Source of the DNA: Escherichia coli
GTDB lineage: Bacteria > Pseudomonadota > Gammaproteobacteria > Enterobacterales > Enterobacteriaceae
Direction: 5' to 3' (one strand)
Length of the DNA stretch: 64,000 nt
NCBI RefSeq assembly: GCF_003334305.1
Contig: NZ_QOWS01000013.1
The notes beneath the pieces were generated by a model that did not search any database, had not been told where the DNA came from, and was given only the letters and a program-made list of their open reading frames with translations. Of this stretch, positions 47,557 to 52,171 are shown piece by piece. Made by a program: the position numbers and the translations under genes. Numbering within the stretch: position 1 is the first letter of the stretch; each line of letters starts with the position of its first letter.

Positions 47557-48564
47557 CTATCCCAACAACTCTTCCTTAACATCCATCGCCAGCTCAAACG
47601 AATGCAGCCGCGCCTGGTGGTCGAAAATCTGCCCGTTGACCATAATCTCATCGGCGTCGGTTTCGCGCAGGATCGACTGCAAGCCATGACGCACTTTCGC
47701 TTTATCACCTACCAACGACATACTCAGCGCCTGCTGCACACCATACTGTTCGGACGGCGACCAGAACTGATCCATATTTTGAATCGGTGGCGGCAGTTGC
47801 CCGGTTTCGCCACGGCGCAACTTCACAAAGGCTTGCTGCATTGAGGTAAACAGAAACTCAGCGTCGCGGTTGCTATCGGCGGCGATAATATTGATGCACA
47901 CCATCGCGTATGGTTTTTCCAGTCGTGCCGACGGTTTGAAGTTGCTGCGATAAAGATGCAGCGCCTGGAACAACATATCCGGCGCGAAGTGTGAGGCAAA
48001 CGCGAACGGCAGACCAAGCTGCGCCGCCAGTTGCGCGCTGTAAAGGCTGGAGCCTAACAACCACACGGGGATTTTCTCGCCATAGCCTGGTACCGGGCGC
48101 ACATGCGGATTGGGATCGCGGGCGTCAAACCAGTCCACCAGCTCCGCGACATCGCGGGGGAAATTATCAATATCGCCGCTCATATGGCGACGCAGCGCCA
48201 TCATTGTCCGTTGGTCACTACCTGGCGCACGACCCAGCCCCAAATCGATTCGCCCCGGATAGAGTGTATTGAGCGTGCCGAACTGTTCGGCAATGACCAA
48301 CGGTGAGTGGTTAGGCAACATCACGCCGCCAGACCCCAGATGCAGCGTGGTGGTATTCGCCGCCAGATAGCCAATCAATACCGACGTGGCAGCACTGGCA
48401 ATGCCAGTCATATTGTGGTGTTCTGCCAGCCAGTAGCGATGATAGCCGCGCTTTTCAGCCAGACGGGCGAGATCGAGAGAGTGGGAGAATGCTTCTCGCG
48501 CTGAAGAACCTTCGGGAATGGGGGCCAGATCGAGTAGCGAAAACGCAATGGTTTTATCAGTCAT
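47557..48564 (-). CDS. yhbW: Luciferase-like flavin-dependent monooxygenase-family protein YhbW, 335 aa
   Basis: LLM-class oxidoreductase-like translation [19 protein letters not shown]. Confidence 0.9.
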
Positions 48565-48769
48565 AACAGCTCACTTTGTTACCGATTAATCTTTAATACT
48601 GCATTAAAGAGTAGTTAAAGTTGTTAACAAAGTGAGCTGTGCTCTAAATAATTCGAGTTGCAGGAAGGCGACAAGAGAGTGAATCCCCAGGAGCTTACAT
48701 AAGTAAGTGACTGGGGTGAACGAATGCAGATGCAGCACATGCAACTTGAAGTATGACGAGCATATTTAC

Positions 48770-49648
48770 TTAGGCTTGCAGCTCCAGTCCTGCCAGCCGC
48801 CGCCAGTAGCCGTTACAGTCGCTGTTTGCCGTCAACAATAGTGGCGCAGCGCCATTTTCATTAGCGCGGAAGGCGTCGAGCATCGCGAAAGTGTCAGTAC
48901 CCTGCGGTGACAGGCGGACCACATCAACCAGCCCCTGCATGGATGCCAGCTCGTTACCGAGGTTGTAAACGTAGCCGCTCATGGTCTGAATGCCATTGAG
49001 TACAAACACTTGTTGGTTTTCCTGCGACAGCACGTTGCGCCCGTTCGGATACTTAATGCAGCAGGTTTCACACTCATCTTTCGGGCGGTCTTCCGAACGC
49101 GCGGTAAAGCAGCGGGCGGAGTAGGCCAGCGGTAGATGACCGTAGCTCAGGACTTCCACTTCAAACTGGTTGCGAATGCCCAGCTCATCGCACTGATTAA
49201 GCAGATTCACCAGCCAGTCGCGGGAAAGCTCCACCGGCATACACCAGCGCATCATGCCCTGTTTGAGCAATATTTTCAGCGTCACCGCGTTGTAGCAGTT
49301 CAGCGCGTGCCCGGCGACGAACGGCAGTTTGCGTTCAGCGCACATATTCACCACGCCGAGATCGCTGGCTTCAATCAGAAACTCACCGTTCTCAACATAG
49401 CGTTTCAGTTCGCCCAGTTCAGAGGATGCCTGCACCAGCGCCAGCGTGGAGAGCACAATCTGCTTGCCACTTCCGGCGAGCGATTTTGCCATCTCCAGCC
49501 AGTCGCCAACTTTGGTTGCCCGGCGCTTGCTGCATACCGCTTCACCAAGATAAATCACGTCGGCGCTGCTGGTGGCGGCCTGCTGATAAAAATCTTCCAG
49601 CGTCTCTTTTGGCCAGTACCACAGCACTGGCCCTAAGGAATATTTCAT
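48770..49648 (-). CDS. ubiV: U32-family protein UbiV (YhbV), O2-independent ubiquinone biosynthesis, 292 aa
   Basis: Start at the internal Met MKYSLGPVLWYW; peptidase U32-family Cys motifs. Confidence 0.88.
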   Translation of the reverse strand: MKYSLGPVLWYWPKETLEDFYQQAATSSADVIYLGEAVCSKRRATKVGDWLEMAKSLAGSGKQIVLSTLALVQASSELGELKRYVENGEFLIEASDLGVVNMCAERKLPFVAGHALNCYNAVTLKILLKQGMMRWCMPVELSRDWLVNLLNQCDELGIRNQFEVEVLSYGHLPLAYSARCFTARSEDRPKDECETCCIKYPNGRNVLSQENQQVFVLNGIQTMSGYVYNLGNELASMQGLVDVVRLSPQGTDTFAMLDAFRANENGAAPLLLTANSDCNGYWRRLAGLELQA

Positions 49649-49656
49649 TGCTCTTC

Positions 49657-50652
49657 TCACTGCCATTTACGGTGATACGCGCCAAGGGTGGTCTGCGTGC
49701 CTTCGGACATCGACCCGAGCGTCTCCATCCACGCGCTTTGCGGTATGAAGTTTTGCGGATCGGCCTTACAACGGTCGATAGCCTGACGCCAGACTTTCGC
49801 CACCTGGCTGACATACGCCGGGCTACGCTGGCGGCCTTCAATTTTCACCGAAGCAATATTCGCCGCCATTAACTCCGGCAGCAGTTCCAGGGTATTGAGA
49901 CTGGTTGGTTCTTCCAGCGCGTGATAGCGCTCGCCGTCCACCAGATAACGCCCTTTACATAGCGTCGGATAACCTGCGTTTTCGCCGTCCTGATAACGGT
50001 CGATCAGCACTTCGTTCAGGCGGGATTCCAGCCCCTGCGGCGTTTGTTGCCAGCGCACGAAACGGGCCGGAGAACACGCGCCTACGGTGTTGGGCGACTC
50101 ACCCGTCAGATACGACGACAGATAGCAACGACCTTCCGACATAATGCACAGGCTGCCGAAAGCAAAGACTTCCAGTGGTACAGGTGTGACCCGTGCCAGT
50201 TGTTTCACCTGATGAATCGACAACACGCGCGGCAGCACCACGCGGGCAACGTCAAAATGGCGATGATAAAAGTTAATCGCCTCTTCATTGGTCGCCGAAG
50301 CCTGCACCGATACGTGGCGCTCAATATGCGGATAACGCTCGGCGGCGTATTCCAGCATGGCGAGGTCGGCGAGGATCAGCGCGTCGGCACCCAGCTGCGC
50401 CGCCATATCCACGGCGCGCTGCCAACGGGCGTAACCGTCCGGATGCGCAAAAGTGTTAATCGCGATGTGAAGTTTGCGGCGATGTTGATGGACAAAACTC
50501 ACCGCTTCCTGCAATTTTTTCTCGGTAAAGTTAAGGCCGGCGAAGTGACGGGCATTGGTATCATCTTTTAGCCCGATATAAACAGCATCTGCGCCGTTTT
50601 CGATGGCCGCCTTAAGCGCCGGGAGATTTCCGGCAGGGCAGAGCAGCTCCAT
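49657..50652 (-). CDS. ubiU: U32-family protein UbiU (YhbU), O2-independent ubiquinone biosynthesis, 331 aa
   Basis: Start at the internal Met MELLCPAGNLPALKAAIENG. Confidence 0.88.
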   Translation of the reverse strand: MELLCPAGNLPALKAAIENGADAVYIGLKDDTNARHFAGLNFTEKKLQEAVSFVHQHRRKLHIAINTFAHPDGYARWQRAVDMAAQLGADALILADLAMLEYAAERYPHIERHVSVQASATNEEAINFYHRHFDVARVVLPRVLSIHQVKQLARVTPVPLEVFAFGSLCIMSEGRCYLSSYLTGESPNTVGACSPARFVRWQQTPQGLESRLNEVLIDRYQDGENAGYPTLCKGRYLVDGERYHALEEPTSLNTLELLPELMAANIASVKIEGRQRSPAYVSQVAKVWRQAIDRCKADPQNFIPQSAWMETLGSMSEGTQTTLGAYHRKWQ

Positions 50653-50860
50653 AATTTTTCCTGAAGGTTGCGCTATCAAAACGCAAAAATGTTAACGAAC
50701 TGGGATTTTAGTTAACCTTGCTGCGACAATTTTTGATTTAAGGCAGTTAAAGTTGTATTGGTGGTAGCAGCAATTTCATATGGAATTGTTGATTTATACC
50801 GCTATGTTATTTTTCTGATATGGCAAAATAGGATGATTGTTGAAACAGGGAGTAAAACTC

Positions 50861-51385
50861 GTGTTGGATAAACTGCGTTCCCGTATTGTGCATTTGGGGC
50901 CATCTCTGTTGAGTGTACCGGTAAAACTGACGCCATTTGCGCTAAAACGCCAGGTTCTTGAGCAGGTCTTAAGCTGGCAATTCCGTCAGGCGCTGGATGA
51001 TGGTGAGCTGGAGTTTCTTGAAGGCCGCTGGTTAAGTATTCATGTGCGTGATATTGACCTGCAATGGTTTACCTCGGTGGTGAATGGCAAACTGGTGGTC
51101 AGCCAGAACGCGCAAGCTGATGTGAGTTTTAGTGCCGACGCCAGCGATCTGCTGATGATTGCGGCGCGTAAACAAGATCCGGATACGCTCTTCTTCCAGC
51201 GTCGGCTGGTGATTGAAGGCGATACGGAGCTGGGGCTGTATGTGAAAAACCTGATGGACGCCATTGAACTGGAGCAAATGCCGAAAGCCTTACGCATGAT
51301 GCTGCTGCAACTGGCGGATTTTGTTGAGGCGGGAATGAAAACCGCGCCTGAAACCAAACAGACATCGGTAGGTGAACCATGCTAA
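50861..51385 (+). CDS. ubiT: SCP2-domain lipid-binding protein UbiT (YhbT), 174 aa, GTG start
   Basis: Translation (M)LDKLRSRIVHLGPSLLSVPVK from GTG at 50861; divergent from ubiUV. Confidence 0.82.
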   Translation: MLDKLRSRIVHLGPSLLSVPVKLTPFALKRQVLEQVLSWQFRQALDDGELEFLEGRWLSIHVRDIDLQWFTSVVNGKLVVSQNAQADVSFSADASDLLMIAARKQDPDTLFFQRRLVIEGDTELGLYVKNLMDAIELEQMPKALRMMLLQLADFVEAGMKTAPETKQTSVGEPC

Positions 51386-51882
51386 TTCGAGTAGAAATTC
51401 CCATTGATGCGCCGGGTATTGATGCCCTGCTACGTCGCTCATTCGAAAGTGATGCGGAAGCGAAGCTGGTTCACGATCTGCGTGAAGATGGCTTTCTGAC
51501 GCTGGGGCTGGTGGCGACAGATGACGAAGGTCAGGTCATTGGCTATGTGGCATTTAGTCCGGTTGATGTGCAGGGCGAAGACCTGCAATGGGTCGGCATG
51601 GCACCGTTGGCGGTTGATGAAAAATACCGTGGACAGGGGCTGGCACGCCAACTGGTCTATGAAGGACTCGATTCGCTTAATGAGTTCGGCTATGCCGCAG
51701 TGGTGACGCTGGGCGATCCGGCGCTGTACAGTCGTTTCGGCTTTGAACTGGCGGCGCATCACGATCTGCGTTGCCGCTGGCCGGGCACTGAAAGCGCCTT
51801 CCAGGTACATCGTTTAGCGGATGACGCGCTGAATGGCGTTACCGGCCTGGTTGAGTATCACGAGCATTTCAATCGCTTTTAA
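51379..51882 (+). CDS. yhbS: GNAT-family N-acetyltransferase YhbS, 167 aa
   Basis: Acetyl-CoA binding motif ([10 protein letters not shown]) in the translation. Confidence 0.9.
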
Positions 51883-52171
51883 TCTTTGGGGTTTGCAGGC
51901 TGCTCAACAGCTCTGCAAACCCTGCGCCTTCCGCTACCAGACGCTCTTTTTGCCGTTTGGTCAGTTGCTTAACGCGATATTCTGCCCGTAACGCCAGCGA
52001 ACGATCGCCCACTGGCGCAGAAAACGCCAGCGTCAGTTCTCCTTTCCCGCGCAGTGCTTTCGCCCCTTTGCCGCTTTGATGTTGCTGATAGCGGCGTTCG
52101 ACATCCGTGGTGATCCCGGTATAAAGCTTATTGTCGGCGGTACGGATCAAGTAAAGAAACCAGGGTGTCAT
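51869..52171 (-). CDS. yhbQ: GIY-YIG domain protein YhbQ, 100 aa
   Basis: GIY-YIG core ([17 protein letters not shown]); start at the internal Met MTPWFLYLI; 3' end overlaps convergent yhbS by 14 nt. Confidence 0.88.

Follow-up and report, generated by a model that had tools for sequence, protein, structure and literature searches.

As shown in Table 1, the window, which here means the whole 64-kb stretch of Escherichia coli DNA that was analysed, contains ubiU and ubiV on one strand, separated by 8 nt, and ubiT diverging from them across a control region, with yhbS/hqbA overlapping the end of ubiT by 7 nt. The gene coordinates and strands of the original prediction are right, and the intergenic interval that it named is exactly 208 bp long; its locus end at 51385 cuts an operon, since the ubiT unit runs on into yhbS/hqbA. 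It has been published that ubiT and hqbA form one operon that is co-induced by Fnr independently of ArcA. Many E. coli chromosomes in which RefSeq annotates ubiV, ubiU and ubiT match the locus at 100% identity. Compared with the locus of K-12 MG1655 (b3157-b3159; Pelosi 2019, Arias-Cartin 2023), the gene order, orientation and gene lengths are the same, and the UbiT protein and the control region are identical, the latter base for base, including F1, F2 and the primer flanks; MG1655 differs in lacking the 125-bp ERIC repeat insertion that separates ubiV from yhbW in the window. No difference between the window and K-12 is expected to change function. The start of ubiV at 49648 is that of RefSeq, and a published cloning primer begins at the same ATG, while the GTG of ubiT is preceded by GGGAG (50848-50852), and cagggagtaaagctcGTG at this gene is conserved across genera in the comparative alignment. 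The longer mechanical reading-frame starts (ubiV ATG 49666, ubiU TTG 50679 and ubiT TTG 50837) were dropped because the RefSeq starts and the published primer starts differ from them, and the TTG of ubiT also because the Shine-Dalgarno sequence plus GTG is conserved.

Table 1. Genes and regulatory features of the ubiT/ubiUV locus, in window positions.
Feature	Position	Strand	Description
ubiV (yhbV)	48770-49648	-	292 aa; U32-family [4Fe-4S] protein, UbiU partner
ubiU (yhbU)	49657-50652	-	331 aa; U32-family [4Fe-4S] protein; first gene of the ubiUV operon
Divergent control region	50653-50860		208 bp, ubiU/ubiT intergenic
ubiUVp -10, TAAAAT	50705-50710	-	Conserved hexamer; predicted start about 50697-50698
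Fnr site F1	50733-50746		TTGATTTAAGGCAG; activator site of ubiUVp, centre about -41.5 to -42.5
ubiTp1 core (putative)	50733-50761	+	Distal, constitutive; predicted start about 50769-50770
Fnr site F2	50789-50802		TTGATTTATACCGC; activator site of proximal ubiTp2, centre about -39.5 to -40.5
ubiTp2 extended -10, TGGCAAAAT	50821-50829	+	Predicted start about 50835-50836
ubiT (yhbT)	50861-51385	+	174 aa; GTG start; SCP2 lipid-binding accessory factor
yhbS / hqbA	51379-51882	+	GNAT acetyltransferase, Hfq-binding; second gene of the ubiT operon; from reading frame and annotation

The proposal that these genes encode UbiT, UbiU and UbiV was to be judged by a homology search, in which all three proteins match their families in both NCBIfam and Pfam, and it is borne out by the equivalog models together with the RefSeq names in a 100%-identical strain. 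UbiU scores 560.0 bits against quinone_UbiU NF047963 (cut-off 440; residues 1-331 of 331 covered), UbiV 363.2 bits against quinone_UbiV NF047965 (cut-off 275), and UbiT 153.6 bits against SCP2_dom_UbiT NF047962 (cut-off 46.9). In Pfam, Peptidase_U32 PF01136 is matched by UbiU at 2e-67 and by UbiV at 1.6e-9, and SCP2 PF02036 by UbiT at 1.1e-19. The cysteines published as [4Fe-4S] ligands are found in both U32 proteins, namely Cys169, Cys176, Cys193 and Cys232 of UbiU (CX6CX16CX38C) and Cys39, Cys180, Cys193 and Cys197 of UbiV (CXnCX12CX3C), and the two substitutions that each protein carries relative to K-12 (I190V and V303I in UbiU; E19D and P271L in UbiV) do not affect a cluster ligand. A sequence search with UbiU for a solved structure gave none at E ≤ 0.001.

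It has been published for the K-12 proteins that UbiU and UbiV form a heterodimer with one [4Fe-4S] cluster per subunit and are needed, when ubiquinone is made without O2, for its three ring hydroxylations, in which prephenate donates the oxygen atom, and that anaerobic UQ8 is lost in ubiU and ubiV mutants. UbiT has been described as an SCP2 lipid-binding accessory factor that corresponds, under anaerobic conditions, to UbiJ, which is likewise an SCP2 accessory factor but belongs to the aerobic Ubi complex. The cell requires UbiT only when O2 is absent, and ubiT, unlike the gene for UbiJ, lies beside ubiUV under Fnr control. UbiU and UbiV belong to a common Peptidase_U32 fold family with TrhP (YegQ) and RlhA (YdcP), which are involved in RNA hydroxylation, but with 165 bits UbiU stays well short of the cut-off of the TrhP model (534). 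The substrates also differ, being a prenylated quinone precursor for UbiU/UbiV and tRNA or rRNA bases for TrhP/RlhA, and the UbiU-UbiV heterodimer, unlike TrhP/RlhA, works with UbiT.

Anaerobic regulator sites had been expected in the control region, and it does hold them, as two published and mutationally validated Fnr sites, F1 and F2, which could be located through the comparison with the published ubiTUV promoter mapping that had been suggested as a check. Both sequences equal the published sites, and on either side of them the window agrees exactly with the published mutagenesis primers. Among the 5,425 E. coli genomes in which the control region is present, its identity never falls below 99%. 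Each site has one perfect TTGAT half, the other half being GGCAG in F1 and ACCGC in F2, so that each shows 3 mismatches to TTGAT-N4-ATCAA. In a consensus scan, they are the best two matches in the control region, but such matches are common: the window contains 285 sites with at most 3 mismatches against 244 by chance, or about one per 225 bp, and about 0.8-0.9 sites with 3 mismatches are expected by chance in 208 bp. The scan was therefore rejected as the sole identifier of sites, its best matches lying at background level. The same figures explain why the original prediction made no confident Fnr call from the letters alone, which was a fair reading.

With an assumed coordinate offset, an FNR ChIP peak lies 2.5 bp from the centre of F1. 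This is the peak at yhbT/yhbU of Myers (2013), in which yhbUV is on the activated list. It has been reported that mutating TTGAT of F1 (mutF1) abolishes anaerobic UbiV production, and that deleting F2 (deltaF2) or mutating it (mutF2) removes the anaerobic induction of UbiT while its basal level is unchanged (Arias-Cartin 2023, mBio). The mutations were tested in plasmid-borne fusions as well as chromosomally, and the two promoters were separable (Arias-Cartin 2023, mBio). On identical DNA, others have shown that the locus depends on Fnr, what mutation of F1 or F2 does to expression, and where the ChIP peak lies.

By the published distances, F1 precedes the ubiUVp start by 36 nt, and F2 follows the ubiTp1 start by 19 nt and precedes the ubiTp2 start by 33 nt (Arias-Cartin 2023, mBio), the starts themselves deriving from dRNA-seq; the exact start coordinates in Table 1 are predicted. 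The gap to the conserved -10 element is 22 nt for F1 and 21 nt for F2, in agreement with the published 36 and 33 nt. This spacing has the geometry of a class II activator, with centres near -41.5 and -40.5, and Fnr would probably make class II contacts at both promoters. Compared with class II Fnr promoters in general (centre near -41.5, TTGAT-N4-ATCAA), F1 and F2 share one perfect half, the spacing and the need for Fnr; unlike the class II consensus, the second half is far off in both sites, and that of F1 is invariant across gammaproteobacterial orders. For ubiTp1, a reading of the sequence suggests a -35 hexamer TTGATT at 50733-50738, a 17-nt spacer and a -10 hexamer TATTGG at 50756-50761, in which case the -35 element would overlap F1; the -10 region is partly conserved in Enterobacterales in the 39-genus alignment.

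Both units are controlled from the 208-bp region. At low O2, active Fnr on F1 switches on ubiUVp leftwards, and active Fnr on F2 switches on the proximal ubiT promoter rightwards. In air, the distal, Fnr-independent ubiTp1 provides basal ubiT expression. Fnr bound at F1 may occlude this distal promoter.

Several other candidate features of the control region were rejected. The single match of a sigma-70 scan (50679-50651, minus strand) extends into the ubiU start codon, lies downstream of the mapped start and is attributed to chance. No terminator-like site was found. A sigma-54 reading of GGCAG...TTG fails by eye, its spacing being off by one and the GC of the -12 element missing. Repeats of ArcA sites are spaced 11 or 22 bp apart, and two GTTAAC motifs read as an ArcA site lie 20 bp apart, UbiT moreover being unaffected by ArcA. 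In an Rfam search of 48400-52000 at a permissive threshold, the only match in the control region is CRISPR-DR22 (21.9 bits, E = 0.28), which is taken as chance, and a V_AS5 match falls on the ERIC repeat, far under the gathering score.

The conservation of the locus was examined in 120 gammaproteobacterial species, comprising 970 kb of loci, with an alignment of 39 genera. UbiT lies upstream on the opposite strand at the loci of 97 of the 120 species, and a YhbS homologue is found on the ubiT side and on the strand of ubiT in 83. Exact TTGAT-N4-GGCAG occurs upstream of ubiU in 93 of the 120 species, including Vibrionales, Aeromonas and Moritella, and in none of the shuffles; the motif has 94 matches in the 970 kb, where about 1.9 are expected, and all but one of these matches lie upstream of ubiU. 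The gap between F1 and the -10 element is fixed at 22 nt in 60 species, and the hexamer is highly conserved in the 39-genus alignment. Similarly, F2 is kept across most Enterobacterales, TTGAY followed by the conserved -10 element is present at 57 of the 79 loci with a divergent ubiT, and TG[GT]CA..AT is kept upstream of ubiT, in 51 cases separated from the F2 14-mer by 21 nt. It can be seen from this comparison that F1, F2 and their promoter geometry are ancient and deeply conserved. In addition, the non-consensus half GGCAG of F1 is as invariant as TTGAT across the 39 genera, whereas the flanks and all but one of the four spacer positions vary, in an information profile whose motif columns are inflated by the use of the motif to anchor the loci; this is a mildly new observation.

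Three other readings of the locus have to be weighed. Both U32 proteins could be collagenase-type peptidases and not hydroxylase components, as their Pfam family suggests and as is echoed by the product name that RefSeq gives to ubiV, 'U32 family peptidase', and by its best NCBIfam model being the generically named PRK15447. This reading is hardly credible, given that both proteins score above the cut-offs of their equivalog models and possess the Fe-S cysteine ligands, that near-identical K-12 proteins are needed for anaerobic ubiquinone hydroxylation and bind [4Fe-4S], and that the paralogues RlhA and TrhP are likewise involved in hydroxylation reactions; the published anaerobic loss of UQ8 in the mutants already refutes it. 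It could also be argued that the TTGAT 14-mers are chance matches and that Fnr acts on the locus only indirectly, since two sites with at most 3 mismatches in 208 bp are not significant at the density found. Against this stand the site-specific mutations, which separate the two promoters in plasmid-borne and chromosomal settings alike, the FNR ChIP peak at F1, and the retention of both sites and of their -10 spacing across genera when the neighbouring columns are not kept, so that the reading has next to no probability. These genes almost certainly form the E. coli ubiT(-hqbA)/ubiUV locus of O2-independent ubiquinone synthesis, with Fnr control through F1 and F2, and none of the results is at odds with this.

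The remaining reading accepts Fnr at F1 and makes the site a composite operator, in which GGCAG is read by a second, conserved factor or through a special asymmetric mode of binding that fixes the O2 threshold. The equal invariance of the two halves amid a mostly variable spacer and flanks, and the spread of the exact motif to Vibrionales, Aeromonas and Moritella, speak for it, since drift would be expected in a half-site that was simply weak. On the other side, the conserved block is exactly 14 bp, which is the footprint of one dimer of the CRP/FNR family, and GGCAG retains the C-A of ATCAA, that is, the T-G core on the opposite strand. Mutation of the TTGAT half alone abolishes expression, and Fnr is required (Arias-Cartin 2023, mBio). 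ArcA has been published to be without effect on UbiT, no candidate for a second factor was found, and the invariance profile carries the inflation noted above. A composite operator is unlikely, and it is with the same small probability that the ubiUV operator may be an invariant asymmetric element beyond a weak Fnr site, with GGCAG perhaps under selection of its own for a precise O2 threshold or a second factor. Fnr acting through F1 and F2 remains the preferred account.

The locus and its regulation have already been published for E. coli, and the window adds no new biology to them; the present analysis assigns window coordinates to both of the published Fnr sites. The conservation of the sites and their geometry in the 120-species comparison supports the transfer of the E. 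coli regulatory model to the rest of the Enterobacterales and, as regards the ubiUV promoter, also to Vibrionales. The locus allows facultative anaerobes to keep making ubiquinone without O2, using the organic oxygen donor prephenate, and its control by Fnr ties the supply of quinone to respiratory adaptation in the gut.

The window is E. coli chromosome and has the gene order of K-12 MG1655 b3151–b3162, and the proteins encoded on both sides of the divergent promoter region were compared with NCBI curated equivalog models, on which UbiU scored 560.0 bits (cut-off 440), UbiV 363.2 bits (cut-off 275) and UbiT 153.6 bits (cut-off 46.9). Pfam places Peptidase_U32 in UbiU and UbiV and SCP2 in UbiT. 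The paralogue TrhP was rejected as an identity for UbiU, which reached 165 bits on the TrhP model, below its cut-off of 534. UbiT is identical to its K-12 counterpart, while UbiU and UbiV differ by two residues apiece, and every [4Fe-4S] ligand of UbiU (C169, C176, C193 and C232) and UbiV (C39, C180, C193 and C197) is found where published, with the same spacings (Pelosi 2019, PMC6747719). The three proteins are thus UbiT, UbiU and UbiV. It has been reported that UbiU and UbiV pair as a two-cluster heterodimer and are needed for O2-independent hydroxylation (PMC6747719), that prephenate is the oxygen donor (PMC10990095), and that UbiT is an SCP2 accessory factor required only without O2; by analogy with this literature, the proteins of the window would function likewise. 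A PDB sequence search with UbiU returned no solved structure at E ≤ 0.001. The original prediction had named these proteins and a divergent region of 208 bp, and homology upholds the former while the ubiU ATG and ubiT GTG positions give exactly the latter (50653–50860). All its proposals hold and had already been published for identical DNA, the locus being a known one; the window departs from the K-12 system only by four conservative substitutions and a nearby ERIC-like repeat.

Genes and regulatory elements of the ubiT / ubiU-ubiV locus (genes from the ORF list and the RefSeq annotation of a 100%-identical E. coli chromosome)
Feature	Coordinates	Strand	Sequence	Remark
ubiV	48770-49648	-		
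ubiU	49657-50652	-		
ubiT	50861-51385	+		GTG start
yhbS	51379-51882	+		
F1	50733-50746		TTGATTTAAGGCAG	published site found in window
F2	50789-50802		TTGATTTATACCGC	published site found in window
ubiTp2 extended -10	50821-50829		TGGCAAAAT	conserved in loci with divergent ubiT

The 208-bp control region is the same as that of MG1655 at every base, so the published mapping carries over directly. Arias-Cartin et al. 2023 described two Fnr sites in this region, of which F1 precedes the ubiUV transcription start by 36 nt, and F2 is 33 nt upstream of the start of the proximal ubiT promoter (ubiTp2) and 19 nt downstream of that of the distal one (ubiTp1) (PMC10470549); in its flanks, each of their mutagenesis primers agrees fully with the window. 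Altering the TTGAT of F1 blocked anaerobic UbiV production, deletion or mutation of F2 abolished anaerobic UbiT induction with the basal aerobic level kept, and neither mutation affected the other promoter (PMC10470549). In addition, Myers et al. 2013 reported an FNR ChIP peak at yhbT/yhbU, that is, ubiT/ubiU (3299423), and listed yhbUV among FNR-activated genes. The anaerobic regulator sites expected in the control region were therefore found by comparison with published mapping. With an offset of 1,977 bp between the genome versions, the ChIP peak falls 2.5 bp from the centre of F1.

F1 and F2 each combine a perfect TTGAT half with three mismatches in the other half of the consensus TTGAT-N4-ATCAA. 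The window contains 285 sites of this quality, where chance predicts 244; at this density of about one per 225 bp, a pair within the 208-bp region is not significant. No Fnr site had been named with confidence from the sequence, and this was sound, because three-mismatch matches, the best that the consensus scan gave there, are no better than background. A generic sigma-70 scan was of no help in finding the sites.

For comparison across species, one genome per species was scanned with the ubiU N-terminal coding pattern, a query blind to the promoter, which gave 120 loci from Enterobacterales, Vibrionales, Aeromonas, Moritella and relatives. In 93 of the 120 species an exact TTGAT-N4-GGCAG occurs in the 420 nt that precede ubiU, and in none of the shuffled controls, a count free of anchoring bias; in the 970 kb of loci there are 94 matches, 93 of them at ubiU, with about 1.9 expected by chance. 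A -10-like TAAAAT on the ubiU strand (50710–50705 in the window) is exactly 22 nt from F1 in 60 loci and 21 nt away in another 2, and in an alignment of 39 genera this hexamer is strongly conserved and its neighbouring columns are not. With TAAAAT at -12 to -7, the F1 centre falls at -41.5, where class II activators classically bind, and the start of the ubiUV promoter (ubiUVp) would lie at about 50698. A divergent ubiT lies no more than 1.2 kb away in 79 loci, and 57 of these carry TTGAY with the conserved extended -10 after it; 21 nt separate the F2 14-mer from the -10 hexamer in 51 cases, and the right half of F2 differs from genus to genus. This conservation of the sites and of their -10 spacing indicates, on sequence comparison, that both published sites are ancient, and it lends F1 and F2 support independent of the experiments.

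In 23 of the 120 species (Vibrio/Photobacterium, e.g., loci L005, L009, L016, L034 and L037), no UbiT homologue was found around ubiU. The F1-type site and -10 are kept upstream of ubiU there, and F1 conservation is therefore independent of the divergent ubiT promoter.

The GGCAG half of F1 is as invariant as TTGAT though non-consensus, and three of the four spacer positions are variable, in the 39-genus alignment, which was anchored on the motif and so inflates conservation of the motif columns. A half-site that was simply weak should have drifted, and a second factor, or selection for precise affinity, might act on F1; this is unlikely, however, as the conserved block is exactly 14 bp, the length of one CRP/FNR-type dimer site, and retains the C-A of ATCAA. 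The simplest reading of F1 is therefore an operator that is unusual but bound by Fnr alone.

Within E. coli, a search with the 2,616-bp locus gave matches in 5,425 of the 5,426 complete genomes. Every one of these 5,425 keeps at least 99% identity over the control region, whereas over the whole locus (48770–51385) 4,039 of them reach only 95–99%; the most conserved part is thus the non-coding one. One genome lacks a match and one copy is plasmid-borne; in strain EEC_W5 (NZ_CM130020.1), the control region lies in two separate places with 61% coverage, possibly through an insertion.

Several other elements were observed nearby. Two GTTAAC motifs (50691–50696 and 50711–50716), lying within an imperfect 18-nt inverted repeat (50682–50725), bracket the ubiUVp -10 and inferred start; they are kept in Enterobacteriaceae and Pectobacterium but not in Vibrio, and may be a repressor site, their 20-bp spacing not fitting ArcA repeats. 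The near-palindrome CAGCAATTTCATATGGAATTGTTG (50768–50791) lies between the ubiTp1 start and F2; Citrobacter retains its CAATT / AATTG arms around a different centre, and more distant genera have lost the left arm. The spacer from the ubiV stop to the yhbW start measures 205 bp, against 80 bp in MG1655, and includes a 125-bp insertion (48639–48763) that K-12 lacks. The inserted DNA looks like an ERIC/IRU element: it matches the ERIC1R primer perfectly and ERIC2 with one mismatch, is dispersed over the E. coli genome in a median of 5 copies, and gives a sub-threshold Rfam V_AS5 match (38.8 bits). The insertion sits at the right edge of a perfect 16-nt inverted repeat (48566–48640; arms ACAGCTCACTTTGTTA and TAACAAAGTGAGCTGT, 43 nt apart), also present in K-12, which encloses a second, 11-nt hairpin and could be a terminator or a yhbW operator. 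In the expression table of Myers 2013, yhbW (6.78) and ubiU (0.07) go in opposite directions.

On the ubiT side, yhbS (hqbA), encoding an Hfq-binding GNAT acetyltransferase, shares its first 7 nt with the end of ubiT. In 83 of the 120 species loci, a YhbS homologue is encoded on this side, on the ubiT strand. It has been reported that hqbA is downstream in the ubiT transcript and co-induced by Fnr, with ArcA having no effect (PMC10710024); the right boundary first drawn at 51385 therefore cuts a transcription unit.

At low O2, dimeric [4Fe-4S] Fnr occupies F1 and F2 and switches on each of the divergent promoters independently, while basal ubiT expression in air comes from ubiTp1 (PMC10470549). 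Judged from the sequence of the window, ubiTp1 probably has TTGATT (50733–50738) as -35, a 17-nt spacer and TATTGG (50756–50761) as -10. Since this -35 is inside F1, Fnr bound there would cover it, and F2 is just downstream of the ubiTp1 start; together these positions suggest that ubiT may be handed over from ubiTp1 to ubiTp2 as O2 falls.
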